Program-made: the position numbers and the translations under genes
Notes under the pieces: model-generated
What the model saw: the letters and a program-made list of their open reading frames with translations, nothing else
Told to the model about the DNA's origin: nothing
Databases searched by the model: none
Shown here: piece by piece, positions 8,725-55,488 of the stretch
Numbering within the stretch: the stretch's first letter is position 1
How the letters are laid out: every line of letters begins with the position of its first letter
Assembly (NCBI GenBank): GCA_004431415.1
Contig: QPMI01000040.1
Coordinates: 1 to 64,000, forward strand
Direction of reading: 5' to 3'
Length of the DNA stretch: 64,000 nucleotides
Source of the DNA: Cyanophora paradoxa CCMP329
Taxonomy: Eukaryota > Plantae > Glaucophyta

Positions 8725-9003
8725 TTGCGAGGGCGGACGAGAGTGAGGGCATGCACTCTCTATGTGTCCCGACCTTTTCTGAACAACTCATGATTGCCGT
8801 ATCATCGATCTGCATTTACTCACTTCGTTCTCTGTCGCTTGCACATGCGCGGTGTGGGATTACTAATTAGATCTAGTCTCCCTAGCCCTCTGCGGCCGCC
8901 TTCCTGCCCCCTGCAAAGAGCAGCTCAACCAAATCCTGTGGGGTCTGATTCATTGCAGACTCGCCTTCCCCGCCTGGGCCTGAGCTACACCAAGCTACGG
9001 TGA

Positions 9004-10172: not shown

Positions 10173-10222
10173 AGCGTAGCCTCGCAGTAGCGTTTAGAAT
10201 TTCTTGATGTGTGCAATTGCAA

Positions 10223-10884
10223 ATGTCGGATGCAGAGGAAGCGCCCAGGGACGTGATCGCACAGTTCATAGATCAGGTCAAGGACCTTAGACGCTGGGTG
10301 GTAGAGCAGGCCTCGCGACCGAATCGACAGCGCCAACCCTGGCCGGTGCTAGAGCTGGCCCGGGCAGGGTGGCTAGACACGCATTACAACTCTGGCGGGG
10401 CCCTTTACGTTCGGAGCCACGACGAGGGCAGGATTATCGACGAGTTCAAGCGCATCTGGTTCGCCCTGGGCTCCAAGCTCAGCATACTCTCGACCCTCCC
10501 GGACCACATTCGCATGCAAATCCTCGAGTGGTACGCGAAGGCAAGGGACTCGCAATGGGACGACGTAAATTTGCGCGACCTCTCGCGCTTGCGCTCGGCT
10601 GTGACGGCGTATGTCACAAACTATGATTATCACGTCAAAAAGCCCCAATTCGAAGTTGAGCCAATTCCGATGAATCTGGTACCCCTGGGATGGGAAGAGT
10701 ACCCCGAGTACTCGTGGAACAGGGGCCTCAACCCCCGCGCCAGGCCCTGCCAGCCCGCCCGCCCACCGATAAACGCCCCGCCCCGCGTGACGTCAGACGG
10801 GACATACGCGAATGGGAGGAGTGGAGCAACGACCCGAAGAACTGGCTACCCGGGAGGCGGAGATGCGGAAGCGCGCGAGGCTGA
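10223..10884 (+). CDS. Hypothetical protein, paralog A of a tandem pair (frameshift near the C-terminus)
   Basis: Intronless ORF MSDAEEAPRDVIAQF...; shares motifs with 10951-11687. Confidence 0.6.
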
Positions 10885-10950
10885 TGCCCGGCGACAGGTA
10901 CCCCGACCGCGAGTAGGGGTACAGGTATAAATTCTCACCGAGCCGCGAGC

Positions 10951-11687
10951 ATGGCGCGAACACGCGAGTCCGACGTGCTGTACAACAACGGCGACCTGGA
11001 CGGGAGATTCGACAGCGGAACGTGGACTTGGAGGATGCGAACGCAGTGCTGGAGGGGAGGCGCACGTCCTCAGGGGCGGCTCGCCGGCGGAGAACTTCAT
11101 GGAGCGCGTGCTCTACCTTGTGCGCTGGATTAGAGACGAATTCCACGACGAGCGAGAGCTCCCGGACAGGGAGATGATCAGGGCCGCGGGCTTGATGGGT
11201 ATGACAGAGAACCCGAGATCGTACCTGAGGCGCGAACGCAGGGATCTGAACGGCGATTGGGCCGACCTGCAAGCGCTGTGGACGGCCTTTGCGAACCGCA
11301 AGAGCCAGATCCTTGCCCTGCCCGCGCAGGTACAGCAGCGTATCATTGATTTCGTAGCCCCCTGGCGCGACGAGTCCCTCCAGCAGCCATTCATGCAACC
11401 ACGCTTCCTCTCCGGGCTCAGGAGCGCGTTCTTCCACTTGGCCGTGAGCAGCGACCGGTATTTCACACCGCAGAGGATCGTTCACGGCGAATTCGGCATA
11501 CCCCCGAGTGGCTGAATTTTGCCACCGTACCCCTTCCCCACCCCGCCTCGAAGGCCCCCCCTCCCCTACCCCCGAGCAGCGTGAGTCACTCAAGCGTCAG
11601 AGGGAGGTACGCGAATGGATGGACGACACCAGCCACTGGGTACAGGGCGAGGCCGAATTACGCAAGTTCGGAAGGTTCGGGCAGTAA
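10951..11687 (+). CDS. Hypothetical protein, paralog B of a tandem pair (frameshifted)
   Basis: MARTRESDVLYNNG...LQALWTAFANRKSQILALPAQVQQRIIDFVAPWRD...LSGLRSAF...REWMDDTSHWVQG. Confidence 0.6.
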
Positions 11688-19784: not shown

Positions 19785-22700
19785 ATGGTGCCCGAAGCGA
19801 TCGGTACGCCTGTCGACATCGCGTTCCTGTGCGACAGTCTCTTAGAATCTCTCGCCAGATGCGAGTGGGAAGCGGTACAATCCGTCGCTCGCCCTCAGCT
19901 CTCGCTCGAGGCCCGTCGACGGATCGATAGTGCCGCGCTCGCAATCGCAATGCGAGGACCGCCATCCCGCCCTTGAGGACGGCGCCGAGGACGTGGTTGA
20001 GTCGGAGGTGCCGCCCTGGACGGGCTTGCGTGGACCGCCGGCGAGGGGCGTCGACGTCGACCGAGCCGCGGCCGGAGCCGGAGCCGGCGAACATGAAACC
20101 GTGGCCGCTTCGCGTGGGCCCGGGCCGCATCATCGCCCGGCACGGCGCGAGGTACGTGCCTTCGTTTCCGAGTTCTTCCCCGCGCTGGTCCGACCCGCCG
20201 GGCCGCGGGCTGGGCCACTCAGGTTTCTGTCTTCGTCTCGGGGCCGTTCCAGGACACCGCAAGCGAGTTCGATGCGATCCGGCGGCGCGCCGCGCCGCGG
20301 CTCCGCGCCCTCTGCGCCGAGCGAGGCGTCTTCTTTCAGCTCGTGGACCTGCGGTGGGCGAAACCCCGCCCCGCCCCGCCCCGCCCCGCCCCGCCTCGGC
20401 TCACCGCGCGGGAGCGAAGGTGGGGCGTGTCGCGCGACGAAGTGCGGCGGGGCGAGCTGCTCGTCCGATGCATCCGCGAGGCGCAGCGGGCGACCTACTT
20501 CGTCGGCCTGCTTAAGGCGCGCCCCGCCCGCCTCATATGATCTGATCCGGGGCGGACCGCACGGGCCTCCGCCCCGCCCCGGCCGGCCATATGATCCGGG
20601 ACGGGCGGATGGCCCTGTTACTAACGTCCCGACAGGGCCGGTACGGGCGCCGGCTGGCGAATCCAGGTGCTTCTTCTCTAAAGCCCTCTGAGGAGCGCAT
20701 CATGCAAAGGCGCGCCGCGCCGCCCGTACCCCCCCGCGACCCGGCGCCGACGCCGGCGCCGCAGGAGCCTCGCGCAGGCCGAATCGGAGTACCCCTGGGT
20801 GCGGGCCTGTCGGGACCAGTCCCTCACGGAGGTCGAGATGCGCGCCGCCGCCCTGAACGACCCGGCGGTGCCCCCCACTTTCGAGCCGTACCGTCCCTCT
20901 CCGGGGCCTCGAACCGGGCCGGGGTGCTGCAGGCGGCCCGCGAACGGAGTCTGTTCTATTTCGCGGAGGGTCAGCCGGGCTCGCCGGCGGACGCGGATGG
21001 GTCCCGCCGCGTGGCCGCGCTCAAAGGCGAGGGCGGGGCCCCTCATATGACCCGCTTCACCCCTCCCACCTTCAGCCGTCGCTCACGTGAGTCCGCGGCG
21101 GGCAGAGGAGATCCGCGGGGCGGGCATGCGCGTCGCCGGCTTCGAAGGACCAGAGGACCTCGCAGCGTCCCTCGCCGACGACCTCGCCGGGGTACGCTTT
21201 CGCGCGCCGCTTGCCTCGCGGCCTCGATCCCCTGCCCCCCCTCCCCCTAATCGTTTCTCCCCTCCCCAACGCACCGACGCCGGTACCCCGTCCGCCCCCC
21301 GCAGCTGATCGAGAAGGACTACCCCCTCGAGGCCCTTCCCTGGCTCGAGGCCGAGCGCGCGCAGCAGGTACCCCCTCCCCCCCCCCCCCCTCCCCCGGCC
21401 CCCTTCCTGTCTCCTTTTCTTTTCCCCCTCTTCCTCGCCTCGCCCCAGCCTCAGACGTCGACCGCAGGCCTCGTTCGCGGAGGGACGGCGGCGCTGCTTC
21501 TGCGGGGACGAGTCGGACGCAGAGGCGCTGGATGCGTACGCATCGGGCAGCGGGCCCGAGGTGCGCGAGGGCTGGCAGGGCTCAAAGAAAAGATGTCCTA
21601 AGATAGGAGGCCGCCGCGGCGCCTAGACAACCTAGAACCTATCCTATAGAACCTATCCTATCTAGAACCTAGACTGTCTCGAACCCAGGTGCGCGCGCGC
21701 GCGTGAGGCCCGAGGGGTCGAGAAGGGCTCGGAGGAGGGGATCCACGGAATCGGGGATCTATTCTTTACTCTTTACTCTTTTGTTCTTTATTCCGGGACC
21801 GAGAAAGAGTTCGGAAAAGAAGATAGATCCACGGAACCCGAGATCTATCCTTTACTCTTTCCGATGCCTTCTGATTAATCATGATCGTCCGCAGATTTTC
21901 GTTCTTAGTAGCGCCGGGGGCCTTGGAAAGAGCGGTGCGCGCGCGGCACTCCCGAGCTTCACGATCGGAGCCTTTGGAATTTTTAATTTATGAGGGGCCT
22001 GTCCTCGCTTTTAAGGCCTAGGGGCCTGTAATCTTTCTCGAGCGATGGAGTGGGGCTAGCCAGCCGCTCGTAGGCTCTGAGACTGTACCGGGGCCGCAGC
22101 GACGCTGGCGAGCTGGGCGGCGCGCTGGGCGGGGGCGCACCCCGCCGACCTCACCGTCGCGGCGTTCATCGGGGGGACCAACGGCTCCTCCCTCCTCCCC
22201 TCCCTCGCCCGGTGCGCCCCCTGCCCCGGCCCGCCCCGCCCGGTTTCCGCTTCTAGCCTCGAAGGCCGCAAAGTCTCAGAAAGACGCTGTATAGCTCTTT
22301 TCTAGCTCTCATCTTATCTAGCCGGCAACGATCGCTGTGGATCTAAATCTAGACCTAGAGGGAAGGGCGCTGTATGTAGATGTAGAGGGAAATCCTTCCC
22401 TCCCTCCCGTGGCTGACGGGGCCCGCGGGGCGCGCCGGCGGCAGACGGCTCGCGGAGGAGGCAGCGGCGCGGTGGCCGGCCCTGCCGCAGCTCGACTGGC
22501 GCGGCTGCGACGCCGAGCTCGCGGTGCGCTCGCGCCTCCTCCTTGCCCTCTCAGATCGAATTCCTTCTCTGCCCCCCGTCTTCTTCTCTGCTTGCTTGCT
22601 GCATTGATTTTTCAACATTGACCGTCGAGATCGGCAAATTATAAGATTCCAAGCCCCGCTCCTCGCGCCCACAGCTGCAGATTTCTGTTTCTCTTTCTCG

Positions 22701-25700
22701 ATCACGTCGAACGATCTTTTTTGAGGTCCCCTTCGACACAAGTCCTGCCTGACCGAGCGGCGCGCAGATCCGGCTGCAGGCGTGGCTCTCCGCCGCGGCG
22801 GCGGTCTGGCCCGGCCGCGCCGTAATCGTACTGGACGCCGTCGACCAGGTGAGTGAGCGGAAACATAGAGAACAGGTTTTGAAGATAACAGTGAGCGGAA
22901 ACATAAAAACAAATGTTTATGCATGTTGCATCCGTTCGGTTCTCTTAGCATTGCAGCCGTCATATATAGCGCTGGGCCATCCAGCGTGCATGTGGATCGA
23001 TCCGGACCTGTGCATCTGCATCCGCAGCTGACGCGTGCGCGCGCGGCGCCGGCGCCGGCAGCTCCGCGGCGAGCCGGCGGCGCGCTCCCTGTCCTGGCTC
23101 CCGCCGGCGGGCCCCGCCCTCCGCATCGTCCTATCTTCAGCCCCCGGTCCGTTTCTCGCTTTGCTTTTCTCGCTTTTCTCCGCTTTTTAATTGAGTGACG
23201 TCGGGCAGGCCCCGCGCTGGAGGCGGCGCGGGCGCGCCCGCACGTGCACCGCGAGCTGGCGGCGCTGGACCCGGACCGCAGGCGGACCCTCGCCCACAGG
23301 CTCCTCGGGGTGCGCCCGCCCCCCCCCCCCCCCCCCCCACTAAGTTGAGAACTTATTTGGCCGAATCCGAAGGCCAACAGTTGTTATAGATAATCCAGAT
23401 ATTTCTAATATAAACAAAGAAGATATCATAAGCTGCCGCCTCCCGCCCTGCTGATCCGCCCCCGCTTGCTTGCTTGCTTTCTTCTCTTTACGCTCGCGGC
23501 GCGGGCGCGGCGAGCAGGCGCAGGGCCGTTCCCTTGACAAGGAGCCACTAGACCGCATCGTCTCCAGCCCGGCCTGCGGCAACGCCGTGCGCGGAGCTGA
23601 GCTCCGCTCTTTTGGGGGCGGATCCTTATCATAATTACTGCGCGCCCCCTCAGCTCTTCCTCACGACGCTGCTGGAGGACCTCTCGACCTGCGCCACGGG
23701 TGCAGAACTGGAGGCGCGCCTCGAGGCCCGCCTCGCGCTGCGGGGCCCCGCCGAGCTCTACCGGGCGCTGCTGGAGGACCTGCGAAGGCGGCACGGGCGG
23801 CTGGTGGCCGAGGCGACGGGGGCGCTGCTGTGCTGTCGGCACGGCCTGGCGGAGGCGGAGCTGGCAGCCTTCGTGGGCGCCGGCGAGCTCGAGCGCGGCG
23901 GGCCCTCCGAGGTCCTAGGCCTTTGCCCTTCCTCTTTCCATCTACGTTTGTCTGCAGCGGCCTTACTTACTTTCCTCGCAGGAGGAGTGGGCGGAGCTGT
24001 GGTACCACCTCCACCCCATGCTCGCGCCCCGCGGTGCGCGTCGTTCGCTTCCACCGCTCACATGAGCGTGCCTCACCGTCTGTGGGATCTGATCCGCGCT
24101 CAGACGGTCTCTACGGATTCCTGCACCGATGCGCCGCCGAGGTGAAAACATGGAACCTCCCATCTCGCACTGACTCGATTCGATTCGATTCGATTCGATT
24201 CGATTTCGGCGCAGGCCGTCGCCGAGGCCTTCGGGCTCCGCGACGAGGCGGGCCCCGCCCGCACCGCGCTCTACGCCCGCCTCGGCGACTTCTTCGCCCG
24301 AAGCGTTCGTTCAAGTTTACTTTGCTATGTATCTGGTAGAAGCTACCAGATGATCATGATTTAACGACGAGGGCTACCAGGCGCCCGGGGAGAGGCGGGC
24401 GCAGGAGGCGCCGTGGGCGCTGGCGCGGGCGGGCCCCGGGGCGGGCGCCCGCGGGCGCCTGGCCGAGCTGCTCTGCTGCCCCGACGTCGTGAGGCGCCTG
24501 GACCTCTACGAGACCGCCGAGCTCTGGAGGCAGGTGCGTGCGGATCAGATCCGCGCATCAAAGGCCGATGAAGAGATCAAACGAAGACAGTGAGGTTTAA
24601 ATCTTACCTGACCTCGCCCAACTGGCGCAGAGCGGGGAGGCGGCGGGGGCGGCCGCCCGCTTCGCGGCCCGCGCCGGGCCCGGCCTCGGGTCCGCTTAAG
24701 CTCGCTCGCTCCGATTCCCGCCAAATTTCAAATTCAAATTCCGATCTTCGTCCTTCCCGCCAGGACGGACCCCGCGCACCTCGTGCGGGTGGGGGAGACG
24801 CTAGAGCGCATCGGGCGGGCCTCGGACGGCACCCCGTTCCTCCAGGTCCGTGCCCCCTGATTTGATTGTGGCGCCTACGGGGGGGGCGGGGCCGGGACGG
24901 GGCTGTTTCTCGCATGGGGGGCCGCGAATATAGCCCGTCCTGCTCCCCAGCGCCGCGCATGTGGGGCCCGGGCCCTGGTTGTCTCACGCCCGCTCGCGGC
25001 CGCCGCTCGCGCAGCGGGCGCTTGAGCTGCTGGAGGGCGGCGGCGCGGGCCCCGACGGCCCGCAGCCGCGGCTGGAGGCGGCTTCCGTGCGGCTGCACCT
25101 CGGCCGCCTCTACCACGTCCAGGTGCGCTAGAGCTTGGAGGGCTCGGGTCTCGAGCTTCGAGGGCTTAGAAGGGAGGCTTAGCTCAGAAGGTTTCGATCT
25201 AGAGCTTTTTGAGTTAGTTGAGGTTCAGCTGAGCCCTCCACCACGTCCGGGTGCGCGCCTCTTAGAGCTAGAAGGCCTTAGAGCTAGCTTAGAGCTTTTA
25301 GAGTTAGTTTAGGTTCAGCTGAGGCCGGGTTAGGAGCTTCTCTGCTTAGCTTCTCCACCCGCCGAGCTGAAGGGCTGAGCTTGAGCTTCGAGGGCTGGGC
25401 TTGTCGAAGAGCGTCAAGGCCCGGGCTTGGCCTGGGGGGGAACACTTCTTGAAGGCCTAGAGCTTCGGCGGCTTAGCTTGTTGGACGGACGGCCGGGGCG
25501 CACCTCGGCCTGTCTTTGCGCGCGCGGCCCCGCCCGCCTCACTTTCCCCGCGAACAGGGGGAGTACGGGGCGGCGCTGGGGCAGATCTAGATCTGCCCCA
25601 GGGCCTAGATCTGGGCCTAGGTCTAGATCTAGACCTTCAGATCTAGATCTGCCCCAGCGCCGCCCCGTACTCCCCCTGTTCGCGGGGGAAGGGCACTACC

Positions 25701-28342
25701 GGGCCTAGATCTAGATCGCCGCTTCGCGGCGCCCCCGAAGTACATCTAGGCCTAGGGGCGGCCCGGCCTGGAGGTCTAGATCTAGAGCTTTGAGGGCTTG
25801 GCTTGTTGAACGGCCGAGGCACACCTTCGCGCGCCCCCGCCCGCCTCACTTCCCCCGCGAACAGGGGGAGTACGGGGCGGCGCTGGGGCACTACCGGGCG
25901 GCGCTGGCGGCCCGCGAGGCGGCGCTCGGGCCCGACCACATCGACACCGGCGGTGAGCCGAGAAGGGTCTAAGGAGATTGGGATAGGGCCGCGCGCGGGC
26001 GGCCCTCTTTAAGGGGCTAAGCGTTGAACTATAGGGCCGCGCGATTGTGATAGGGCCGCGGGCGGGCGGGTGCGCCCGGAAGGAAGGGGCTAAGAGGCTC
26101 GCTATAGGGCCGCGCGCCCGGCTGCGGGGCCTTCTCGAGAAGAGCGAAGAAGTCTCTTAGCCCTGGAGTGCTGGTCTAAGAACATTGGGATAGGGCCGCG
26201 CGCGGGCGGCCCTCTCGAGAAGAGCGAAGAAGTCTCCTAGTCCCTTCTCTAGCCCTGGAGCGCTGACGCCCCCGGCCCCCGCAGCGGCGCTGCACTTCCT
26301 GGCGATGCTGCACCAGGACCGCGGCGAGTACGCCGCCTCCCAGCCCCTCTACGAGGTCCGCGCGCGCGCGCCACGGCCCTCGATCCATTAAGCTTCGGAG
26401 GACGGCTCCGGCGCGCTCGCTCGCTTGCTCGCTCGCTCTGGGCGCAGCGGGCGCTGGCGGTGCAACAACTTATAGAAGATCTAGAATTTATAGATCATGG
26501 CACACTGTAAAGTTCCGACGCTCGCTCGTGGCGCAGCGGGCGCTGGCGGTGGCGGCGGGCCACCTCGGGCTCGACCACCCGAGCGCCGCCTCCGTCCTCC
26601 GCGGCCTTGCCATGCTCCTCCAGGTCCCTTCCTCCCTTTCCTTTTCGTTCCTTTTTGTTTCCTTATTTCTTCCTTCTGCAGGACCGGGGCCGCCTGGAGG
26701 AGGCCCTGCCCCTCTTCCAGCGGGCCCTCGCAGTGCACCGGAGCGCCCTGGGGCCCGAGCACCCCGAGACCGCCGGGTGCGCCTCCTCTCTCCTTTCTAG
26801 AAGGCGGGAGATCCTAGGGTTCCAAGACTCAGATCTGACCTGACCTGAACTTCGCCGCGGCGTGCGCTCAGGTCGATGTACGAGCTGGCCCGGCTCTGCC
26901 TGGCGCGCGGGAGCGTCCCCGCCGGCCTCCGCCTCTACGAGGTCACCTCACCTCAGATCTGATCTGATCTGATCTGATCTGATCTGACCTGAAATGACCT
27001 GCACTCCGCAGCGGACGCTGGCGATCTGCGAGCGGGGCCTGGGGCCCGAGCACCCCTCCAGCGCCATGGTCCTCCAGGTGCTCAGATCAGATCTGAGCTT
27101 CCTTTCCGTTCCTATTCGTTCCTTTTTGGTTCCTTTTGAGCCTCTCTTATGCCTCCGCAGCTGGGGGCGGAGCTGGCGGCGGCGGCGGGGCGCCCCGCAG
27201 AGGCCTTCCGCCTGTGCGAGGTGGGCCCGGACCCCTTCTTGCCTCCTAGGCCTGGTAGACGCTGGGGAGAGCGCCGCCCCTCCTAGAAGAGCCAAGGACC
27301 CGCGGCCCCCTAACCTCCCACAAGGCCGTCTGCCGAGCTAAGAGCGCCGCCCGAGCCGCCCGCTGAGGTGGGCCCGGGCCCCTTCTTGCCTCCTAGGCTA
27401 GAGTGCCGCCCCTCCTAGAGAGGCGTGTGCGCCCGAAAGAGCGGTCCCCTACCCTAATCCCTTCGGCCCGCTAGACGCCTCCTCTCCTAGAAAAGGCCGT
27501 CCCACGGTTCCCTAGCCTCCTGCGGGCCTCCCCAGACCCGCGGACCCCCGGCGATCGACCCCCGCTCTCCACTGACTCTCTGCGGGGAGCCTGCCAAGCG
27601 AAGAGCGCCGCCCCCGCTCCCCGCTGACTCTCTGCCGGGCGGGGCGCAGCGGGCGCTCGGGATCCGGGGGCGCCTCTTCGGGGAGCGCCACCCCTGCACC
27701 GCCGCCAGGTGACCGCGGGCCTCTTGCCCCCGCCAAACGTTAGATCTAGAATATCAGCCCGGCGGGCTAAAGCTAGCTTAGCTAGCTAAAGCTAGCTGGC
27801 TGGCCACCTCTCCCCTCCGCCACCCCTGCACCGCCGCCAGGTGACCCCGGGCTTCTTGCCCCCGCCGAATATCAGAATATCAGCCCGGCCGGATCCCAGC
27901 GCCCGCCTCTAGCTAGCTGGACGGCGGGTCACCTCTCGCGCCGAGAGGCTGACTGGCCTGTCTTCGGCGGGCTAAAGCTAGCTGGCTGGCTGGCCACCTC
28001 CTGCCCTCCCCCTCCCTCCCTCCCTACCTCCCTCCCTCCGGCTTGCGTGAGCTTCCCTAGGCCTCCGGGCAGCGCGCACGGGCTGGGGGAGCTCTAGAAT
28101 AGAATATGGGAGAGGCCCCGCCGAGCATTAGGATATCAGCCCGGCCGGAAGGCGAGGGAGGGAGGGAGGGGAAGAGGCAGGCCTGTCTGTCTGTCTGCCT
28201 GTCTGTCTGCCTGGCTGACTTGGGCTTCCCTTCGGCCAGCGCGCACGGGCTGGGGGAGCTCTGCTTCGCGGCGGGGCGCCTGGGCGAGGCCCGCGCCCTC
28301 TTCCAGGTACCCCCCGCCCCCTCCCCTCCCCGCCCTAGACTA

Positions 28343-28381
<39 letters not shown>

Positions 28382-30146
28382 GGACTAGCTAGCTTGCTTG
28401 CTTGCGCTGGAAGCCCCGCCGCGCCCCGCCCTAGACTAGCATGTCTCCTCGCCTCGGGCCGACCTGCATAGACTAGTTGGAATCTCTCATGCACTTGAAA
28501 CTCTAAAGAACGGCGCCGCCGTCTGTCTCCGTCTCCCGGGCTACTCGGGCCGACCTGCTGGGGCGCCTCGCGTCGCAGGGGGCGCTGGAGGTCTTCCGGG
28601 GCAGCCTCGGGGAGGCGCACCCGGACGCCGCCTCCGCCGCCCACTGCCTCGCCGCCGTCCTCCACCAGCAGGTGCGCCGGATACGAGATAGGCGAGACTT
28701 TGTTCTAGACATTGTTCTAGAGAATCGCGGCCCGGCGGTCCCTCCAAACTCTGAGCTGACGCTAGTAGAGCTTCTAGGGGTCTGGTCGCTAGTAGATCTA
28801 GTCTAGTAGATTCCAGATCTAGCTAGGGTCCAGTTGTCCTAGAGCGTCGCGGCCCCAACTCTGAGCTGACGCCGGCCGCGCGGCGCGCAGGGTGAGCTGG
28901 CGGGGGCGGCGGGGCTGTACGGGGCGGCGCTGGCGGCGCGGGAGGCTGCGCTGGGGCCCGCCCACCGCGCCACGGGCGCCACCCTCCGCTGCCTTGCTCT
29001 CCTCCGGTCCGCCCCGCCCCGCCCGCAGCCTTAGAGATTTAGAGATTGAAATGGGTACGGTGGAGGGCGGTGGAGGGCGCCCCGCCCCGCCCGCGGCCCT
29101 AGGAATTGATGATGGGGGGCCAAGCCCTGGGCGCTTCGAAATCGTTTTGCGTTGCTGACGCATCTTTCTGCGGCGGTGTACCCAGGGAAGAGGCGGGGGA
29201 GCGGGCCGCCGCCGTCGCCCTCTACCAGGTACCCGTACCCCCCCTCCCCCTCCCCCCTCCCCCCTTCTCTCAGTTTTCGAGTTTGCCATCCTTCCTTATC
29301 GGCCCGTCTCTCTCTCGATCGGCTCGCTTTAGATTGGTTTTAATGACGCCCCTCGTCTCCTTCTCGCAGAGGGCGCTCTCCGTCCTGGAGAGGGCGGACG
29401 GGGCGCCTGCGCGGCGCGAGGCGGAGGCGGCGCGGGGCGCCCTCGAGCTCGCCGCGCGCGCCCCGCCGCGCCTCGCGTGCCACGAGGGCCCGTCGGCGGC
29501 GGGGGCGGAGGAACCGGTACCCCCAGGGGTGGAGGGGGAGGAGTGGACGGTGCTTCTGCTGGGCCCCGGGGCGGAGGCCAAGCGGCGGGTGGCGCGGCTC
29601 CTCACGGGCCGCGGGGACTACGCCGGCGTGCCCCCCAGCGCGGTCCGTTCTGCCACATGCGAGGGAGAGAAGAAGATCATAAGATGTACTGGGCGATACA
29701 CATATGAATAAGAATCGACTTAAAAGGCAAGATCTAGAACACTTCCTACGCTATCTATCTATGCCTGCCTCCTCGTTCGGTCCCGGCCCAACTTTCGCCT
29801 CACCAAACCGGGCCGCCCTTCCCCCGCGCAGTGCGCGGCGGTGGTGCAGGGGGAGGCGGCCGTGGGCGCCGGCCGGCGGAGGCTGCGGGTGGTGGACACG
29901 GCGGGGCCGCGCCGCGCCGCCATCGACGACGTCCTCGGCGAGGTGAGTGGGAGCGAACATATATGTCCAGACCCCTGAGAGCGAGATCGTGACCGCTAAC
30001 ATATCAACATTCCCCGTCTCTTACACAACGAATGCGCGAATGCGCGCGCGCGTACGCGTGTACGTGTGCAGGCGTCGGCGTTCTGCCCGGAGGGCTTCAG
30101 CGCTCTCGTCGTCGTCGCGGAGGTGGGCGCCAGCGCCAGCGCCGAG

Positions 30147-30177
<31 letters not shown>

Positions 30178-33015
30178 ACACTGCTTCGGACGAGGTGCGC
30201 GAAATCAATAGGGGGGGCCCTGAGGAGAGCATGAGGGAATGAAGATCCCGGAACTAAACGCGAGGCTCTCGCTTAGTTTTTCCAGACGAGTTAGCTCAAG
30301 CGCAGCCATAAGCAAACCTTATTATAAGCTGGGTTATAAGTTATAGCTAAATGTAAGCTGGGCGGGTCGGGCGGGGCGGGGCGAGCGGGCCTGGGCGAGC
30401 TCTCACTTAGTTTTTCCGGACGAGCTAGCTTGCTGGCCATCAGCTAGAATCTGGAGGCGGCGCGCCCCGACTTCGGTTGGATGTGCCCCTGACTTCGCCC
30501 CCGCGCACGGCAGTTCTTCGACGTGCTGCGGGTGGCGGTGCTGGGGCGCGCCGGCGAGGCCCGCGCCGTCGTCGCCCTCGTCGCCCACGCCGCCTCGCCC
30601 GGAGGGGGCCCCCGCCCCACAGAAGAAGAAGAAGGAGGAGGAGGAGAAGGCGTGGAAGCGGTCCGCGCAGAGGAGGAGGAGGAGGGGGAGGCTCCTTCGC
30701 GCCGGTGGGGCCGCGGCCTCCGCGCGATGGTCGAGTCCTGCGGGCGCCGCTGCGTCGCCTTCGGATCGAAGCTCGTCGACTCCGACGGCGGCGCCGGCGC
30801 CGGCGAGGCGGCGGGGGCCGCCGCCGCCGCGCGACGGGCGCTCCTCGCACACATCGCCGCAGTGGCGTCGGCGTCAGAGAAAGAGGCGGGCGCGAGGGCG
30901 GGGCGGTGCTTTTTCGCGCGGGAGATCGTCCAGGGGGCCGCCCTCTGGCGATGCCGCCCCCGGCGCGCCCCGGACGCCGTGCGCCGCTCCCCTCCTCCAC
31001 GCAGGCCTAAAAGATGCATATAGGCCGAGCTCACTCTCCCGCGCAGTGGCAGCGGGCGGCGATGGACGTTGGCGATGTCCTCGCACGCCTCCGCCTCCAC
31101 TCCCTCGACGGTGCCCCGCCCCGCCCCGCCCCAGAGACTCTCCCGCCCACCGCCCGCCCGCCGCCTTCGTTCGCGGCCAGCGCTCCGCGTGGTCGCCCTC
31201 GTCGACCACGAGAACGACCAGGTCCGCCCCCGAGCTCCCCTCCCGAGAACGACGGGAAATCCAGTGAAATCCAGTGAAATCCAGTGAAATCCAGTGGCAT
31301 CTAGTGCGAACGAAGTCTAGTGAATCTAGGGGGGGAGGGGGGGGGGGGGGGGCCTAACAGTCTCCCGCGGCCGCCTGCCTGCCCCGCTCCCTTCCAATCT
31401 CGTCCGCTCTCTCCCCCAACCCCGCCCCCCCGCAGCGGGCGGCGGGGTCGCTGCTGGAGGCGCCCCCGCTGCTCTCGCACGCGCGCACCCTCGTCTTCTA
31501 CTGCCAGGACGCCCCCGCCGCCCACCGTCTCCGGTCCGCCCCTCCCGCCCCGTTCCCTAATTAGAACCGTTCCCGTTCCGCTCTAGCAGATCTAATTAGA
31601 TTCTAATTATATAAACTTTACGAGCGGCGGCGCCTCGCCCCACCGCACCCCGCACTCCGCTCGCGCTCATGTGATCTGACTGATCCGACTCACCTGAGCA
31701 GGGTGCTGGAGGACCCCGAACGCTCGGGGCGGCCCGACCTCCTCGCCATCCGCGCCCCGCACGCCCGCCGCAACGCCGCCGACTTCGCCCTCACACAGGT
31801 ACCCCCCTCCTCTTCCCCCCCGTCCCCCCTAGAGGAACGAAACGAGGGAAGCGAGCTAGAGAACGATCTGTACCTCTGCGTAGCTTAGCCCATTTACCTG
31901 CTCTTGTCCGTCCCGTCCGATCCGACGGACGAGAGCAGGCAAATGCGCTTAGCTGGCTGCTAGGCCCATTTCTCTTCCCCCCCTGCTCTCAGGCTCAGGC
32001 CCATCCGCCCCGCGCCGCCCATCCACCCCGCGCCCCGTCGCCCGGCCCCGCCCCTGCCCTGCCGGCCTCGCCCCTCTCACCCGCACGCCCGCCCGCCCCT
32101 CCAGTGGGCCGGCCTCCTGCACGCCCTCGTACCCCTCTCGTGCAAGGTTACCCCCCCTCTAACCCCCTGATTCTCTACCCCCTCCTGACACTCTACCCCC
32201 CCCCCCCAAGTTCCTCGTGGTCTCCCAGGACGGCGCCCTCGTGGACCTGGCCTCCGGCCTCCTCCAGGCGCGCCGCTCACCTGACTCTGATCCCGATTCC
32301 GATCTGATCTGATCTGATCTGATCTGATATGATCTGATTCCGATGGGACGCAGGCGCGGGCGCGGCCCTTCGCCGTTGTCGCGGGGCACCGCATCAACCT
32401 CTGGTCCCGCATCCTCGGTGCGCCCGCTCTCCTTGTATATACAAGCAATCCGTCAACTACATCCACCTTTGGCTTGGGACCTCGAGCTTTCTGGGTCCAA
32501 TCTGAGGCTTTTCGACGCAGCGGAGCTTGAGGCGGTGGAGCGGACGCGCCCCGGCTGGGCCGGCCTCAGGCGAGCCGCTCACCTGAGTCTGATTCGATCC
32601 GATCCGATCGGATCTGATTCCGGCGCCAGGGAGATCCGCGCGGCGGCGCTGCAGCGCTTCGCCCCGCGGGCGGCGGCGCGTCTGGCGGCGGACCGGCCTA
32701 AGGCATGCTCCTCGGCCTGGAGCCTCCTGCGCAACACGGTGCGCCGCGTCCGCACACGAACACCGCGGACCCTCAGACGGGCGCCGCCTCAGGTGATGCG
32801 GCCGGCGGAGCGTGAGCTCTTTGGCGGCGAGGCGCACGCGGCCGCCGTCGCCGGGGCCTTGGCCGCCTGCGGCGCCTTTCTTGCCCCGGACGGTGAGACA
32901 GAGACGGGGCGGTAGAGGGGAAACTGAGAGGGGGGGTCTGACGTCTCCGGCGCGGCGCGGCGCGGCGCGGCGCGGCGCGCAGGGCGTGGGGAGGTTCGGT
33001 ACGGCCCCGCAGCGT

Positions 33016-33068
<53 letters not shown>

Positions 33069-33726
33069 CCTGCGCCCTCTGGGTTCTCCGGTACCCGCCT
33101 GGTGCGCGACTTCGCTTCTTTCTTTTTTCTTTCGAGCCGAGGAAACGCACCCTACCCCCCCGCCATCTGAGCTCCAGTCTCCCGATCAGACGAGGAGCCC
33201 GTCGCCCATCGACGCCCCTGCGGAGGCGGAATGCGAGCCCGCGCGCAGGAAGGTCCTCCGCGCGTCCCCCGGCCACGACATCGTGGGGCTGTTCGGCCGC
33301 GCGGCGCGCCCTGTACCCCCCGGCCCGGAGGAGGAGACCCTCTCGGACCTCGGCTTGGTCGTTCAGAGCCGTGGCGCGCCGCTGCCGGCGCCGGCGCCGG
33401 CGCAGGCGGCCGCCTGCCAGCGCCCTGTACCCCCCGAGCGCGAGCGCTGCCGCTTCTTCCCCCCCGCCGGGGGCGGGTGCCGCCGGGGGGCGAAGTGTCC
33501 TTTCGCTCACGAGGGGCCGGGCGCGGCCCCCGCCGGCCACGTGCACGGGCCCGCCCTCGGCCTCATTCACGGCCTTAGCCTGGAGGAAGTGCTGGCGGAC
33601 CCGCCCGGGGGCGAGGGGCCGGGGCCGGACTGGGCGAGGGCGAGCTCGAGGGAGGAGAAGCTTGAGCTTCAAGCCCGGCAGGCGACTGCAGCGGCCGGCG
33701 AGTCGCGGTCGCTTTCACCCCTGTGA
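19785..33726 (+). CDS. Large multi-exon NPHP3/TEP1-like STAND protein: DUF4062-NACHT-TPR-AIG1/GIMAP-like-PIN/NYN-like-CCCH zinc finger
   Basis: VSVFVSG.FQD...LCAERGVFFQLVDLRWGV (DUF4062); SSAGGLGKS and VIVLDAVDQ (Walker A/B); LGPEHPETA-type TPRs; TVLLLG...LRVVDTAG...VESCGRRCVAF (AIG1); LVDHEN...NAADFAL...FLVVSQDG (PIN); CRFFPPAGGGCRRGAKCPFAH. Start uncertain. Confidence 0.75.
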
Positions 33727-35686
33727 CCCTCCATTTCCCACTGCATTACTTATAACTACCTTTCGAAAATGCTTTATCATAAGTACAATTTTACAGTCCA
33801 GCATTATCGTATAGAAGATCTAGAGTTTATGTAGAGTCATGGCTCACTGTAAAGTGTAAATGCACACTTAGAGAGCAGTTCGTCCGACGGTCACTGATCA
33901 TGAGTCGACGTCACAGTCTTGTTGTGTCTATTTCATTTCAGGAAGAACATACTAATTATATAAGTTATACGTATACGTATACTTAGCGACGTCCGACGGT
34001 CAGATTATGCTTGACGGCGTCCTTTTCTATTGGCCATGCATGGTGAATAACGCTGCATATATTAACGCAGTCCGCAAGTGAACACCACGGCATATCAATT
34101 TCCATAATATCATTCGTAAGTCGTAAGTGGCAAATTGTCTTTAGCTTATAATTAGAATGTGTCGCAGCGCATGCATGCGCGCAATTGCAAGCTTAAGCTT
34201 TAATTTTGCAGCTCGTTCACGTGCACAACTAGTACTCATGTATATGTAAATGATCATGATCATGATCCGATGATCATGATCATTATGTATACGCACCTGC
34301 CAGGCTGATCATGATGGACTCCGGGATATATGTATCGATCGGGGTCGCCGGATCCGCCATACCAGCTGCAGGCCGCTAGGCCCGGCGGCCCGGCGGCCGG
34401 CGCCCTGCATGCGCAACTGGCCATATGGACGAAGTTCCGAAATTTAAGTTTCATGATCAGCCTTCCAATCCCAACGCCGACCGCCCCGCCGCTCTCGAGT
34501 TCCCGGCCCCTACCCCCGGCCCCCCGCCCGCCCTAGGCCTCCCCGCCCCGGCCGCCCCGGCCCCCCGCCCCCCTCCCCGCCCCCCCGGCGCCCGGCCCCG
34601 GCCGCCCGCGGCCGCTCCCTCTCCCCGCGGCCGCCCCCTCTCCCCGCGGCCGCCACCGGTACCCCCACCGGCCCCCCCCTCCTCCCCCTCCCCTCCCCTC
34701 CCCCCCCCCTTCCCGCCCCCCTTCCCGCCAGGCCCAGCGCTAGCCAGGGCCGGGGCCCCGGCCCCCATGTCATGACCAGCCCGCGCGCCCCCGCCCCCAC
34801 TCCCCGCCCCGACCCCCGCCCCCCTCCCGCCCCGGCCCCCCGGCCCCCGGCCCGGCCCCCTCCCGGCCCCCTCCGGCCCCGGCCCCCGCCCCCCTCCCCG
34901 CGGCGGCGGCCGCGGCGCGGTGCCGTGTGCATGCCAGGCCGCGCGCGTGCGCGCGCGCGCGCGCCCGGTCCCGCGGCCGCGGCCGCGGCGCCGGCCGGCG
35001 CCGAGCGCGCGCGGCCGTTGCAATAATTTCTGTCCGGTTGTGCAGAAACTGCGCCGACAGTGCATCTGCGCAGCCCTTTTGCATGTCTGCGCACACATTC
35101 GTATTACCGCGCGACACTTGCTGCTACGTACGGCCCGGCGGCGCCGCTGCGGACTGGGTGCGTATGCGGAGCATGCATGCGCATGCGGGCTGCGGGCCTG
35201 CCGCAGTGCGGCAGCTGCAGCCTGCAGCTAGCGCTGCAGAAGGCTGCAGGCTGCAGGCTGCAGCATTGCACGCGGCCGGGCTGTGCGCCAGCCTGTGCGG
35301 CTGTGCCACGGCCGGCGGGCCCGGCGCCGGCGCCGGCCCGGCGGTGCCACCACTGCCACGGTGCCCCAAACACATATGTGGGCGCTTGAATGGTCACGGG
35401 GCAACGACCCACGTGCCACGGTGCCAGTCATTCTTTTTTAGCCTGTCATTTGTTCGGAGAGTTCTACCCAACGGGTACAAGAGCTCTGATTTTAACGTAC
35501 CCCAATTTCAACTTGGCAACAGCAACTTGGCAAGCGCTTCGAATTCAAGATTTGGGCTATATATGCGCATGCACTGCGGCACTTCACCCACATACGCGCG
35601 CCAACCCAGCTCAAGTAGCGCTATAAACTGTGCGCAAGCTGCTAGCTGTAGACGTGATTCGTCACGAATCCAGGAAATGTGTTGAC

Positions 35687-38600
35687 ATGTACCCCGGTTT
35701 TAGAAATTACCCGCTTCCTCCGATCACTCTGCTGGGCATAGCACTCTGGTGCCGGTCCAGATTTGCAAGGAGACGTGGGAGCTGCGCAAGGGTGGAGTAC
35801 CCACACGCGTACGGTGCCGTCGCTGCTGCGGGCCTGCGGCAGCTCCCGCCGCGAGTCCCGCGTGCGTGCAGCGCTTCGTGCGAGCCCGAAAGCCGAAGCT
35901 AGCCTCGTACCGGCAGTGCTCTGTGCTGTAAGACGAGCTGATATCTCTGCGCAGCCTTACTACATCATCGCATCATCAACTCAATCCAGACATTTGGGGT
36001 GCTGTTCGTCCTTGAGACTGGAGCAGCAGCACAGGATGCGAAGCAGCAGGCTGCCCTCATCATCCGGCAACTGAGCGCAAACGCGTCAGAGCTGCTTGGC
36101 CCAGTCGTGGCAGAGGAGGCTCTGGGGAAGGACCTGGCGGATTTCAGCACGGTTTTCTCGAGCGAAGTCCTCGATGCGATCCGCGGGCGCGTGTGCGGCA
36201 CCGCGGGCGGCCCCTTCCGCGCAATCTGCGGGACCGGAGAATGGGTCGGAGCTCTGCATCCGTCGGGGACTGCCACAACCGACAAGCGGCACTTCCTACT
36301 GGAGATGCTGCAGCACAAGACCGAGATCGATCCTCTTGGCGTGCTCAGCGATGCGCAGCTTGCCGTCCGTGCGCGAACGAAGTTCCCTGCCCCGCTCCCA
36401 CCCCAGCCGCCCGACGCCTTCGCGCAGAGCGCCTGCAGTGCGCTACCTCAGCGGATGAGCTGGGAAATGTCATGGTGGAGGAGATCTCTCGTCTCACTGG
36501 CTTCGCTCGAGTAATGTCCGCCCTCCACCCCGCCGCCACCCTTACTCGGGTCGCCGTGCATCTCACGAGCCCCGCCCCGCTCTTCGTGCGCAGGCTATAC
36601 CGTTTCGATAGCGATGTAAGCGATTTGTTCTTCCTTTTTCCTCCTTTTTCTCTGCTAACATTTCGCCCAGGGACACGTGCGCTCTACGAGGACCCCTGCC
36701 CGTGCCCTGCCGCCCTTCTTCCCAGTCTGACGGTCCCGCAGGGCCAAGTCATAGCCGAGTGCTTGAGTCAGGAGAACCAGGAATCGTACCTCCACCTTAT
36801 GTAGTGCGCACGCGCCTGGGCACACGCCGCCCTTGGCTCGCGCGCCTCTTTGACTTGAACTCAGCCCTGCGACCGACGTGCCTTTCGTCGCCCGGAGTTT
36901 GTATTGTAAGACGAAATTCCGGCTTATCCCCGACATCGGTGAGCGCGCGCGAGGCCTCGATCTCGCAATTTACCCGCTTCCTTGCTGAGCCCTCCCCTTG
37001 TCAGACTACACGCCGGTTCCCATCGTCTCCTCCCCCGGTAGTGCAAGGCTGGACACGTCACTCGCAATGCTGCGCGGCGTAAGCCCGTGCCACATTCGAT
37101 GTGCGCGCCCGCCCGCCTTCCCTCCCTCCCGCCCCTTCGCTGGGCCCCGGCTGACCCGCCCGCCTGGCCCCCCAGACCTGCGCAACATGGGGGTACGGGC
37201 CTCCCTGTCCTTTGCCATCGTGCAGGATGGAAAGTGCTGGTGCGAGATCGAACGCCCCGCGCCCCTCCCCCGCCGGGCGTCGCCGAGCGCGGCCCCGGGG
37301 GCAGGGGCCTCTGCTGCTGCCACCACTACGAGCCCAGAGCCCTCCCCTACCACGTCATGGTGCGGGGGACGGCGCGGCAGCCTCCTCCGCGAAACGAGAG
37401 CGGCGCCCGCCTGACGCGCGCCCGCCTCGGCCCCGGCCTCGCCGCAGACGGCGTGCACGGCCCTCGTCTCGATGTTCCAAGTGTCTATGCAGGCGAAGGC
37501 GCACGAGCAGCGGCAGGAGTACGAGATGAAGGCGCGCACTATCCAGGCGCAGATCCTGAACCAGTCGTGCGAGAACCTGGACTACGTGGACGCCCTCATC
37601 AACTGCTCCCCTTGCATCCTGGACCTCGTCCGATCCACTGGGGCATCCATAGTCGCGGGTGGGACTGTCTGCAGCCTGGGGACTGTGCCCACAAAGGTGC
37701 CGGCGCCGGGCGCGAGTTGAACAGTGTGCGCCGGCACTGCTCGGCGGCGCTGACGCCGCCGCTCGCCGCCTCGCAGGAGCAGTGCCTGGACTTCGCGCTC
37801 TGGCTGCGGGACGAGACGGCCGGCATGTCGGCTGACGAGATCTACACGTCGACGTGCCTGATGAAGGACTACCCCGCCGCCTCGGAGTTCAAGCACGTCG
37901 CGTCGGGCGTCCTCGCCGTCGCCATCTCGCGCGAGCAGTCCGAGTTCGTCTTCTGGTGGCGCGGCGAGGTCTCCAACTCCGTTCACTGGGCCGGGATGCC
38001 GGACAAGTCCTACGTGGTTTCCCAGGACGGGCTGCACCCGCGCATCTCGTTCCAGCGGTGGACGGCCCTCGTGACGGACCGCTGCGAGGTCAGAGATTTG
38101 ATCCAGATTTGATCCGGATATGATCCGTGATTTGATCCGTGGTCTAACTGTTGCCGCCGCGGGGATTCGAACCCCTCAGGCCTGGTCTGAAGCCGACATC
38201 GCCGCGGCGCGCATCTTCCGCATCACAGTCGGAGACCTCCACGTCCGCATTTCGGCAGAGGCGCGCTCCCCTCTGATTTCCCGTGTCTCCGGCCCGGCCC
38301 GGCCCTGCTCGGCCCGGCTGATCGCCGCTTGCACCGCAGCTCAAGCTTCGCGGCGAGATGCTGGGGAAGCTCAACGCAGAGCTGGAGGAGGCCAACTCGA
38401 AGCTGGCGCGTCTCATTCTCTCCTTCCGGCCCCGCGCCGGAGATTGGCTGCGCCTCCGACGTCGCTTACGCCGCGCCCGCCCGCCCGCCCGCCCGCCGCG
38501 CAGCGTTACGTCGCGTCGGAGCTGACGACCCTCATCCAAACCGTGCCCGTGCCGGTGTTCGGCGTCGACAAGGGCGTCAAGATCGACGAGTGGAACCCCG

Positions 38601-41600
38601 GTTCATCCGCCCTCCGCCTCCGCCTCCCCCATCCGCCTCCGCCTCCGCCTCTGCCTCTGCCCTGACGCAGCCCCTGGCAGCCTGCGAGAAGCACTTTGGC
38701 TTCGCCGAAGCGGAGGTCTTCGGGGGCGACTTCAGTGAGCGGGTCGTGATCTACGAGCAGCGCGAGGCGGTCACGAGGGCCCTGAGGCAGGCCCTCGCCG
38801 GGCAGCAGGTCAAGGACTTCGAGCTCACGGTGCGCGCTAGTCCGACTGGGAACCTAGCCACGCCTAGCATAGTCCGATTGGGAACCTAGGAACCTAGTCC
38901 AATTGGGAACCTAGGAACCTAGTCCGATTGGGAACCCTAGCCTAGCCTAGCCTGGCCTGGCCTAGCCTAGCCTGGCCTGGCCTAGCCACGCCTAGGCTTG
39001 CCTGAGCTGAGCTTGTCTTCGGGCGGGCGGGCAACAGGTCTTCGCGAACGGCAAGCGGACGGAGTACAGCCTGCACGCGGCCCCGCGAATGGACTCAAAC
39101 GGCAACACCGTCGGCGCCGTCGGTACTTTAAGCTTTCTCTCGTACTTTCTGAAGGCGGCCGCTGACCAAGAGGCGCCCGCGCGCGCGCGCGCCGCTCGGC
39201 AGCCGTCTGCCAGGACATCACGGAGCGCAAGGAGGTCGCCAAGGCCGAAGTCCGCGCCGCCCAGGGTCCGCCCCCGCCCGTCCGCCCGCCCCGCCCGCCC
39301 CGCTCACGCCGGCCGCGCAGCCCGCAGCGCGAACGACGCCAAGAGCATGTTCCTCGCCACCGTCTCGCACGAGATGCGGACCGTGCGCCGCCGCGCCGCG
39401 CCCGGCCTCCCTTCCCGCGCGGCGCGGCGCTGACGCACGCGACCCGCGCGCAGCCACTCAACGGGATCCTGGGGATGCTGCAGCTGGCGATGGACAGCGA
39501 GTCGCTGCCCAAGGTGGCGGAGGACTACGTGAAGCGGGCGTTCCAGTCGGGGGAGCACCTGCTCGCACTCATCTCGGACATTCTCGACATCTCCCAGATC
39601 GAGTCGGGCAAGATGCAGCTGCGGCACATGGCCTTCGACATCCGCTCGCTGCTGCGCTCGGCGATCAACCTGATCGGCCCCAAGGCCGAGGCCAAGGGCC
39701 TCAAGGTCTCCTCCTGCCTCTCCGACGACTTTCCCGTCCGCGTCATCGGCGACTCGGACCGCCTCCGCCAGGCCCGCCCGCCCCGCGAGCCGCCCGCGCT
39801 GTCCCGCGCTGACGGGGCGCCCCGCAGGTGCTCATCAACCTGTGCAGCAACGCCGTGAAGTACACGCGCAAGGGCCGCATCACCGTCACCTGCTCCATCG
39901 AGGAGGAGGAGGAGGACCGCTCGTGCGGTAAGAAGACCGCCCGCCTCCGCTTCGAGATCAAGGACACCGGTTCGCGCCCCCGCGCGCCCGCGCCCGCGCC
40001 TGCCGCGGGTCGATCTTCTGGTCCGCCGACGCGGGCGCGGGGGCGCAGGCATCGGCATCCGGGAGAGCGACCTGAAGATCCTCTTCACGCTCTTCACGCG
40101 CATCCGCGAGGAGAACTTCCAGGACCCCGGCGGCACGGGCCTCGGCCTCGGTCCGCGCGCCCCGCGCCCCGCGCCCCGCGCCCCGCGCCCCGGCTCACAG
40201 CGCCGGCAGCCATCTGCAAGCAGCTCGTGCAGCTGATGAACGGCGAGATCGGCGTGCAGAGCAACTACGGCAAGGGATCCGTCTTCTGTGCGCCCGCCCC
40301 GCCCTGGCTTGGCCTGTCGAGGGCGCCGGCGTCACGCGCGCACCCGCCCTTTGTGCAGGGTTCGTCATTCCGTTTGAGATTTCGTCGGAGCCGGCACCCC
40401 TTCAGGATGAGGACGTGGACGAATTCAAGCCTTCGGTGCGCGCCGGCCGGCCGGCCGGCCGGCCGGCCCGCCCCTCTAAGATCGCCGCGGCCGACTGGGC
40501 CCGCGCCGCCGCCGCCGCCAGATCGAGGTGCACCGCTCGGCGGTCATTCTGCTCGCCGAGGACAACGAGTTCAACGTGCGCCCGCGCCCGCCCCGCCGCT
40601 GCTCCGCCCCGCGCCGCGCGGCCGACGGCGGGGCCGACGGGGGCGCAGATGGAGGTCGCCCGCGTTCTGCTGCAGAACGCCGGCCACGTCGTCTTCACCG
40701 TGCGCGCCCCGCCCGCCGGCGCGCCGGCGCTCCGAGCGGAAGCTGACGGGGCGGGGCGGGCAGGCGCGGAACGGGCTGGAGGCGGTGGACCTGTTCGCGC
40801 GGCGGGTGCGGCTCGCCAAGTCGGGCACGTCGACGCAGGCGGCCTTCGACCTCGTCCTTATGGACTGCGAGATGCCCGTCATGTCCGGCTACGAGGCCGT
40901 CCGCAACATCCGGTCCGCCCCGCCCCGCCCCGCCCCGCCCCGCCCCGCCGCGACCCCGGCCCGGCGGCCTGCCGACGCGCGCGCGCGCGCGCGCCGCAGA
41001 ACCGTCGAGTCGAGCGAATGCGTCGCGCGCACGCCCGTCATCGCCCTCGTGCGCAGCGCCCCGCGCCTGCCGACCCGCCCGCCCGCCCGCCGCGCCCCGC
41101 CGAGGCCGCCCCGCAGACGGCGCACGCCATGAAGGAGCACAGCGAGAAGTGCTTCTCGAGCGGCATGGTGCGCCCCGCGCCCCCCGTCCCACCCCGCCGG
41201 CGCCGACGCTGTGGCCGCCCGCGCAGGACGACTACATGACGAAGCCGATTTCGAAGGAGGTCCTCCTCCAGACCGTCGCCAAGCACATGCAGGTCGGCCG
41301 GCCGCACCTTCCACCCTGTACACCCCCGCCCTCTGCTTAACCTTTCCGCGCTCGACAGCCCCGCCGGTTTCGCCCCGGTGCCCCCCTGCCCGGGTCCCAC
41401 GCCGGGTCCCTACCCTTCTCCCGCCCCGGCTCGGTGCGCGCGTACCCCCCACCCCATTCCGGAAGCCCCGCCCCCCCGGTTGACGTACCCCGACAGGCCT
41501 CCATGTCCTCCACAAACTCGCCCGCCCTGAGCAGCCCGGCCATCGTACCCTCCCCGGGCCCGATGGGGTCCCCCCCTGCCCCCGCCACAATCCAGACCTC

Positions 41601-47521: not shown

Positions 47522-55488
<7,967 letters not shown>

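Follow-up and report, generated by a model that had tools for sequence, protein, structure and literature searches.

We found that positions 19785 to 33726 on the forward strand of a 64,000-nucleotide stretch of Cyanophora paradoxa CCMP329 DNA (contig QPMI01000040.1, positions 1 to 64,000; called the window here) very likely form one spliced gene, which encodes an NLR-like protein with a DUF4062 head, a NACHT-containing STAND core and TPR repeats, followed by an added tail. Profile and motif comparisons place in this tail a probably dead GTPase-like domain of the AIG1/GIMAP kind, a nuclease-like domain best matched by PIN7, and a single CCCH zinc finger. Tentatively, and with less than even confidence, we suggest that the protein acts as a STAND-gated ribonuclease whose tail displaces the NADase output of the head.

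Gene structure and transcripts

Exon borders were read from the window and spliced, which yielded 53 exons, 5,724 nt and 1,907 amino acids with a single terminal stop; the donors are 47 GT and 5 GC, and all 52 acceptors are AG. Over the 3' 2.3 kb of the spliced sequence, the two remaining frames contain just 2 and 5 stops, and because open frames are cheap at high GC content, the model was weighed on RNA and homology. RNA evidence came from five of six sequencing runs, which were presumed to be RNA (6-11% of words matched) and accepted for showing GT-AG joints. Runs X1-X3 and X6 belong to one study and X4 to a second; contig depth was left unused.

Twelve of the 15 introns 3' of exon 38, the fusion exon that carries the last TPR and the start of the GTPase-like domain, are present as RNA joints, all at the predicted sites. 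The joint from the GTPase-like to the PIN domain appears in four runs from both studies, X4 showing those pieces independently, and a joint with a short side of 24 nt (33101/33190) sets the frame of the CCCH finger. RNA contigs overlap across the fusion exon (29369-29567 and 29530-29641), and an X3 contig leads from TPR exon 36 into it with a 41-nt gap that matches exon 37. A preliminary description of this DNA had placed the last TPR and the GTPase-like start in one exon, and the open frame and these contigs bear this out. The 30194/30514 joint occurs in one contig only, 1,218 nt long, mostly placed elsewhere and probably chimeric. Three joints in the PIN-to-CCCH stretch (32267/32354, 32417/32521 and 32892/32983) were not seen in the RNA contigs, which lack coverage at about 30608-30659, 32236-32532 and 32873-33077 and are uninformative there either way, and no joint upstream of exon 38 is among the RNA joints listed.

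The 5' half is supported by an unbroken alignment to the Cyanophora paralog P0126 (41.9%, amino acids 102-1151). No in-frame Met lies between amino acids 976 and 1366, and the N-terminal half of the GTPase-like domain therefore could not be made from an AUG of its own without TPR sequence.

Searched against 1.84 billion representative proteins, exon 18 gave 13 matches, all from one family. The 100% match is the published model of this gene (EukProt Cyanophora paradoxa tig00000158_g10124.t1, P0121; 711 amino acids), which is identical over amino acids 1-351, omits the Walker A and Walker B exons and stops in the intron after 25122. A profile built from paralogs only gives 990 bits for the 53-exon model versus 546 for the published one. 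Because the new model aligns unbroken to P0126 and outscores P0121, the published split is, by these alignments, very likely an annotation error. We also weighed a locus with two products, in which PIN and CCCH are made mainly from their own start at Met1455 or the gene is split at an unobserved junction. Met1455 (at 31062) does lie 17 residues ahead of the PIN domain, the three PIN-to-CCCH joints and all STAND joints are unseen in RNA, and the published model ends where it does; with the GTPase-to-PIN joint in four runs, and with the published break falling within a TPR unit that is unbroken in the paralogs, this arrangement appears highly improbable.

Domains of the core and the tail

The DUF4062-NACHT-TPR core of the preliminary description was recovered in all its parts (Table 1). 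The head matches the TEP1 crystal chain 11gz (E 2.1e-12) and reaches 22.7 bits in Pfam, where the cut-off is 24.7. In the NACHT domain, Walker A (21910) keeps its GKS, with the first Gly changed to Ser, and Walker B keeps Asp451. Two single exons pass the TPR_10 cut-off, a paralog-built profile counts seven repeats, and amino acids 86-907 score 871 bits with the paralog-only profile. Introns of the TPR region (25521-25691, 26430-26462 and 27818-27876) contain near-exact copies of exon edges, splice sites included; the copy of the start of exon 26 is folded into a hairpin of 54 nt and lies in the intron that terminates the published model.

The GTPase-like domain was compared with a first profile of 21 GIMAP fragments, all four tested members of which corresponded to Pfam AIG1. 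Over amino acids 1180-1435 (189 columns), hhalign gave a local score of 32.0, which no shuffled (11.9 +/- 2.2; 0 of 200) or block-shuffled sequence (18.4 +/- 2.5; 0 of 200) reached; the genuine NACHT P-loop region scored 24.5 with the same profile. The HMMER score was weak (5.2 bits, reached by 2 of 1,000 block shuffles). With a profile of 97 domains, the hhalign local probability was 80.6 over 192 columns and HMMER gave 10.1 bits on the domain, the maxima in 1,000 + 1,000 shuffles being 1.2 and 3.8 bits, and only 3.4 bits on the whole protein. Matches in the ESM Atlas, all below 0.9, link exon 41 to an AIG1 cluster (0.85) and exon 38 to mixed MMR_HSR1/septin/AIG1 clusters (0.87-0.89), the latter being GTPase N-termini. 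No single exon gave a Pfam match to AIG1 (PF04548) or a match in the PDB, and a query with exon 41 retrieved no protein in the range of 273-2,000 amino acids, which is weak evidence. The match is collinear with AIG1, includes two AIG1-typical boxes and contains low-complexity inserts. Of the motifs that we take to be G1 to G4 and the arginine finger, the domain keeps the G3 DxxG and the G1 Lys but lacks the Gly and Ser of G1 as well as G2, G4 and the arginine finger. The degenerate P-loop noticed earlier was found at amino acids 1188-1197. As judged with GIMAP profiles, we regard the domain as a likely pseudo-GTPase, probably dead and tentatively of the AIG1 kind among TRAFAC families such as Toc34 and septin.

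For the nuclease-like domain, a motif scan returned 120 loci with 106 usable sequences, and all ten tested correspond to Pfam PIN7 (PF18475); the members of this profile were chosen on two C-terminal motifs, a choice that inflates the score. On the full protein it matches amino acids 1475-1571 (E 5e-6 for one sequence; hhalign probability 94), and on the isolated domain it gives 19.9 bits, with maxima of 4.7 in 1,000 shuffles and 12.7 in 1,000 block shuffles. The unselected N-terminal half alone matches more weakly: none of 1,000 shuffles reached its level, but 7 of 1,000 did so when blocks were shuffled. The N-terminal DxEN motif is present though it was not used in the selection. All seven PIN7 invariants are kept (D1479, E1481, N1482, N1541, D1544, S1568 and D1570), and the motifs DHEN, NAAD and SQD named in the preliminary description were found at amino acids 1479-1482, 1541-1544 and 1568-1570, with the CCCH finger following as it had stated. 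No single exon gave a Pfam match to PIN (the PIN7 cut-off is 34 bits) or a PDB match, and the PIN7 profile found none among PDB sequences. On the spliced protein, however, local profile tests supported both this assignment and the AIG1 one.

The conserved Asp residues are spaced by 65 and 26 positions, and those of MARF1 by 68 and 26 as described in PMC6294520. The nearest fold to a predicted structure of a bacterial PIN7 protein is the MARF1 NYN RNase (Z 11.0, rmsd (root-mean-square deviation) 3.0, 116 aligned), a match from which an unrelated hydrogenase domain differs by less than 1 Z and which bears on the PIN7 family, not on this protein. The survey of Matelska et al. (PMC5499597) counts 603 bacterial and one eukaryotic PIN_7 and gives the function as unknown. 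By sequence, PIN7 is the best match of the nuclease-like domain among the profiles compared. The ZNF451 domain PIN_11 is presumably related to PIN7.

The finger has the spacing C-x9-C-x5-C-x3-H and matches zf-CCCH_4 with E 3.8e-5 (23.7 bits; cut-off 24.6). Between PIN and CCCH, an identification of amino acids 1601-1702 with the C-terminal domain of bacterial PIN7 proteins was rejected: 2 of 150 shuffles did as well at first, and 16 of 120 once the profile was deepened to 60 sequences. This C-terminal domain is present in about 60 of 140 bacterial PIN7 frames; it opens with an RP motif, bears no Pfam name in the four scanned and is predicted to fold into three helices and a hairpin resembling a winged helix.

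Table 1. Features of the gene in window coordinates (aa, amino acids).
Feature	Position	Strand	Basis
Whole gene	19785..33726	+	Spliced model; RNA joints; paralog alignment
Start codon; N-terminus (exons 1-2, aa 1-104), likely disordered	19785..20151	+	Start as in published model P0121; RNA piece 19961-20149
DUF4062/NIR TIR-like NADase head, aa 105-250; several invariants on the pocket side lost	20223..20965	+	TEP1 chain 11gz; conservation counts
NACHT ATPase, aa 352-515	21895..23303	+	Alignment; paralogs pass Pfam NACHT cut-off
Helical and winged-helix modules of STAND core	23518..24533	+	Exon 18 finds 13 family members; alignment
KLC-type TPR array, aa ~762-1150	24777..29444	+	Pfam TPR_10/12 on single exons; paralog-built profile
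Fusion exon 38: last TPR, capping helix, linker, GTPase-like first strand and P-loop	29370..29642	+	Open frame; overlapping RNA contigs
AIG1/GIMAP-like likely pseudo-GTPase, aa 1183-1432	29541..30927	+	GIMAP profile comparisons (hhalign, HMMER) with shuffled controls; ESM leads
PIN7-like (minimal NYN) nuclease domain, aa 1472-1598	31183..32401	+	Profile matches; RNA joints
Segment of ~100 aa between PIN and CCCH	32405..33005	+	Resemblance to bacterial PIN7 C-terminal domain not significant
Single CCCH zinc finger, C1816 to H1836	33448..33510	+	Pfam zf-CCCH_4; frame set by 33101/33190 joint
3' untranslated region	33727..34239	+	RNA contig X1 33536-34239

The head and its Cyanophora relatives

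DUF4062 is described as a TIR-like NADase in three preprints of 2026 (10.64898/2026.05.01.722283; 10.64898/2026.09.04.749371; 10.64898/2026.06.25.731849). The TEP1 residues R908, R954, R976 and E1008 were placed on chain 11gz by one common offset, by which the catalytic Glu (E229 = E1008) and R182 (= R976) are kept; the positions of R908 and R954 are variable in the paralogs as well. The family residues Ser111, Thr112, Met116, Arg120 and Trp185 are all changed in this protein, in which the family-invariant SST and ER motifs read SGP and EF. Ser111 is invariant in 120 of 120 and Arg120 in 122 of 122 aligned rows of the family, a conservation which suggests that SST and ER are needed for catalysis, and the change of Arg120 is covered by RNA without mismatch. 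Among near-invariant head columns, 7 of 31 deviate here. Of 23 scorable paralogs, 22 deviate at 0-4 (most paralogs at 0-2), and all 100 other relatives at 0-3. In the predicted structure (AlphaFold) the head retains a confident alpha/beta fold, and amino acids 1-99 have a pLDDT (the per-residue confidence score) below 50. We infer that the activity of the head is impaired.

The retention of E229 and R182 would also suit integrated decoys. In that case the GIMAP-like, PIN and CCCH parts would serve as baits resembling the host targets of pathogen proteins, their binding would trigger the NACHT, and the head would still deliver the output by cleaving NAD. The GTPase-like domain has lost its nucleotide motifs, as is common in decoys, and the tail follows the repeats as do non-canonical domains such as zinc fingers in fungal NLRs, according to PMC12258605. 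A pure bait would not be required to retain every PIN7 invariant, however, and the head is the most eroded of the parts tested, and we therefore consider decoys unlikely.

Cyanophora has 27 other records of the family (P0122-P0149 and P0248), which form one clade and bring the number to at least 28 with this gene; 18 were assigned to Cyanophora by accession, as was P0248, and 8 by name style and clade. Most of the 27 keep intact NADase motifs. Among the best 120 of 610 relatives of the core, from an incomplete search in which the gene's own record was absent, 21 are from Cyanophora; the other 99 (32-37%) are metagenomic, or bacterial where a name is given. A 60-row FastTree, which took 34 of 100 outside rows, was midpoint-rooted and shows no donor, separates the gene and 25 paralogs from the rest by a branch of support 100; the gene's own branch is long (0.66). 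The sequence comparison identifies the gene as one odd member of a lineage-specific Cyanophora DUF4062-NACHT-TPR expansion. Head erosion is also seen in a second paralog, P0129 (tig00000658_g2927), which deviates at 8 of 26 near-invariant columns. Two of its substitutions recur in this gene, its Walker B Asp is gone as well, and a tail may lie hidden at its locus.

The tail, searched with the AIG1 and PIN profiles, the CCCH pattern and the tail itself, was found in the annotated protein records of 0 of 127 relatives, nor in P0248, and this absence holds for annotated records, as paralog models may be truncated in the way P0121 was. P0248 ends at the helix equivalent to the opening helix of the fusion exon. 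A decaying paralog might have lost its stop and joined a neighbouring GIMAP-PIN-CCCH gene by chance read-through, giving a chimera with no joint function. Such an origin would agree with a tail confined to this record, with a junction within one exon just beyond the paralog ends, with the long branch and with the degeneration of both head and GTPase. Set against it are a 1,907-codon frame unbroken over 52 introns, a GC content at third codon positions of 0.84-0.97 in each domain, correct splicing and intact Walker and PIN residues, and we hold a functionless chimera to be improbable.

Possible functions and significance

The STAND-gated ribonuclease that we favour could work as follows. An invader-derived ligand would be bound by the TPRs, or by the pseudo-GTPase serving as bait or dimerisation surface; the NACHT domain, with its Walker A Lys-Ser and Walker B Asp, would exchange nucleotide and oligomerise; and oligomerisation would release or cluster the PIN7 domain for divalent-metal cutting of single-stranded RNA, which the CCCH finger might help to hold. 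The ancestral NADase head, under relaxed constraint, would contribute little, and the output would move from NAD depletion to RNA cleavage. Precedents are described for each side of this scheme: DUF4062-STAND-TPR proteins protect bacteria through NAD depletion (10.64898/2026.09.04.749371), bacterial NACHTs with C-terminal effectors after repeats exist (10.1101/2022.07.19.500537), and ZAP-KHNYN combines PIN and CCCH in acting on viral RNA (PMC12709174). An immune role of the gene is plausible.

Several points weigh against this interpretation. Every functional step is an inference. The single transcript proposed in the preliminary description stands for the downstream introns found in RNA; the contigs of the five runs include none across the whole gene and no joint for the STAND-to-TPR intron. 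The head may still work because E229 and Arg182 are kept, and its erosion is only partly specific because the NACHT part is also divergent, its NACHT-winged-helix columns deviating at 6 of 51 positions, within the paralog range of 0-8. No ortholog with the same tail was found, PIN7 is presented in PMC5499597 without demonstrated activity, and the conserved Gly-aromatic pair after the last Asp is Gly-Ala here and displaced by one.

A role outside immunity, as a MARF1- or Regnase-like regulator of mRNA or transposon-RNA decay with the STAND-TPR part as scaffold or signal input, would draw on MARF1 NYN, described as an mRNA-decay enzyme (PMC6294520), being the nearest solved fold to PIN7, on the report that full-length human NPHP3, NWD1 and NWD2 show no NADase activity (10.64898/2026.05.01.722283), and on the housekeeping and signalling genes downstream. 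Against this role speaks the family itself, which has expanded within one lineage and has its nearest relatives elsewhere among bacterial or metagenomic sequences, the usual pattern of conflict genes; we judge the role quite unlikely.

The preliminary description had also connected the gene with a nearby viral island. This connection was not supported. The only gene identified in the island is a YqaJ exonuclease, some 10 kb upstream, and nothing ties the island to the receptor-like gene, whose downstream neighbours are a phytochrome, a PP2C and RPB2. The stretch concerned (5300-11520) is intron-free and includes the YqaJ exonuclease (9522-10064, minus strand; E 6e-15, PHROG 434), a tandem array of 89 bp x 5.9 (9003-9534) and, at 6374-8570, long open stretches which change reading frame and matched nothing in Pfam or PHROG; 10 of 11 frames at about 5.3-11.5 kb have no useful Pfam match. 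By these features it looks mobile or viral. A motif scan for viral contigs gave a single match, judged chance. Further along the window lie a phytochrome-like gene with PHY, PAS, histidine kinase and receiver domains (about 37000-41000), a PP2C-like gene (about 44200-45400), RNA polymerase II RPB2 (about 47800-55300) and a coding-like region of about 80% GC on the minus strand (56500-63900) with no Pfam match in three segments tested.

The protein resembles TEP1, NWD1, NWD2, NPHP3, TTC41 and the bacterial PsAvs2, as these are described, in its N-terminal DUF4062 with a Glu equivalent to E1008, its NACHT Walker A and B and its C-terminal TPRs (10.64898/2026.05.01.722283; 10.64898/2026.09.04.749371). 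It differs from DUF4062/NIR-NACHT STANDs in about 750 additional residues after the TPRs and in the loss of the SST and ER motifs. With PIN7 (PF18475) as characterised in PMC5499597 it shares the minimal NYN layout and DxEN, NAxD and SxD at equal spacing; unlike in bacterial PIN7 proteins, the domain is intron-split and fused to a STAND. An effector placed after repeats, and TPRs followed by a C-terminal PIN, are also known from bacterial NACHTs with C-terminal effectors and from TPR-GreA/B-C-PIN proteins (10.1101/2022.07.19.500537; PMC8195603), which are prokaryotic, with a different PIN version by description and without a GIMAP-like domain.

The AIG1/GIMAP match (PF04548) extends over about 190 columns, and the loss of G1, G2, G4 and the arginine finger sets the domain apart from that family. 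A degenerate G1 is not rare, occurring in 74 of 426 fish GIMAP domains, and fish GIMAPs also fuse to immune domains such as CARD (P0054) and RING/B-box (P0035). Among 120 listed of 3,327 long GIMAP proteins, all from fish, none lists TPR, NACHT, PIN7, NYN or CCCH; two of these Pfam lists are incomplete, one row has NB-ARC among P-loop cross-matches, and fusions outside fish lie beyond this sample. The pairing of a PIN/NYN ribonuclease with an RNA-binding module recalls MARF1 NYN, Regnase/MCPIP1 and ZAP-KHNYN, none of which is known to have a STAND switch or GTPase-like domain. MARF1 carries a second Asp, at 427; the corresponding residue here is Phe. No report of the fusion or of the Cyanophora expansion was found in the literature outside subscription papers; the Cyanophora records are probably listed in the supplement of the NIR preprint (EukProt, Table S5). 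Each part, and C-terminal STAND effectors as such, are already known, and what is new is probably their combination, at the level of the species.

Very little is known about immunity in early-branching Archaeplastida, a group for which DUF4062 heads have been reported in only 9% (10.64898/2026.09.04.749371). We reveal here a gene that would unite three modules tied to animal and plant defence in one chain, which is absent from the public gene model, and domain surveys of predicted proteomes overlook such fusions. With this gene one can ask if PIN7 has nuclease activity and if an RNase at the C-terminus can be gated by a eukaryotic NLR-like switch, with the paralogs that have intact heads as controls. 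It is conceivable, if doubtful, that an effector swap is ongoing, in which an Avs/TEP1-type head fades and pseudo-GIMAP, PIN7 and CCCH take over as an antiviral RNase. If this is true, the protein would be a single-chain eukaryotic STAND-gated antiviral ribonuclease and would offer a first handle on the function of PIN7.

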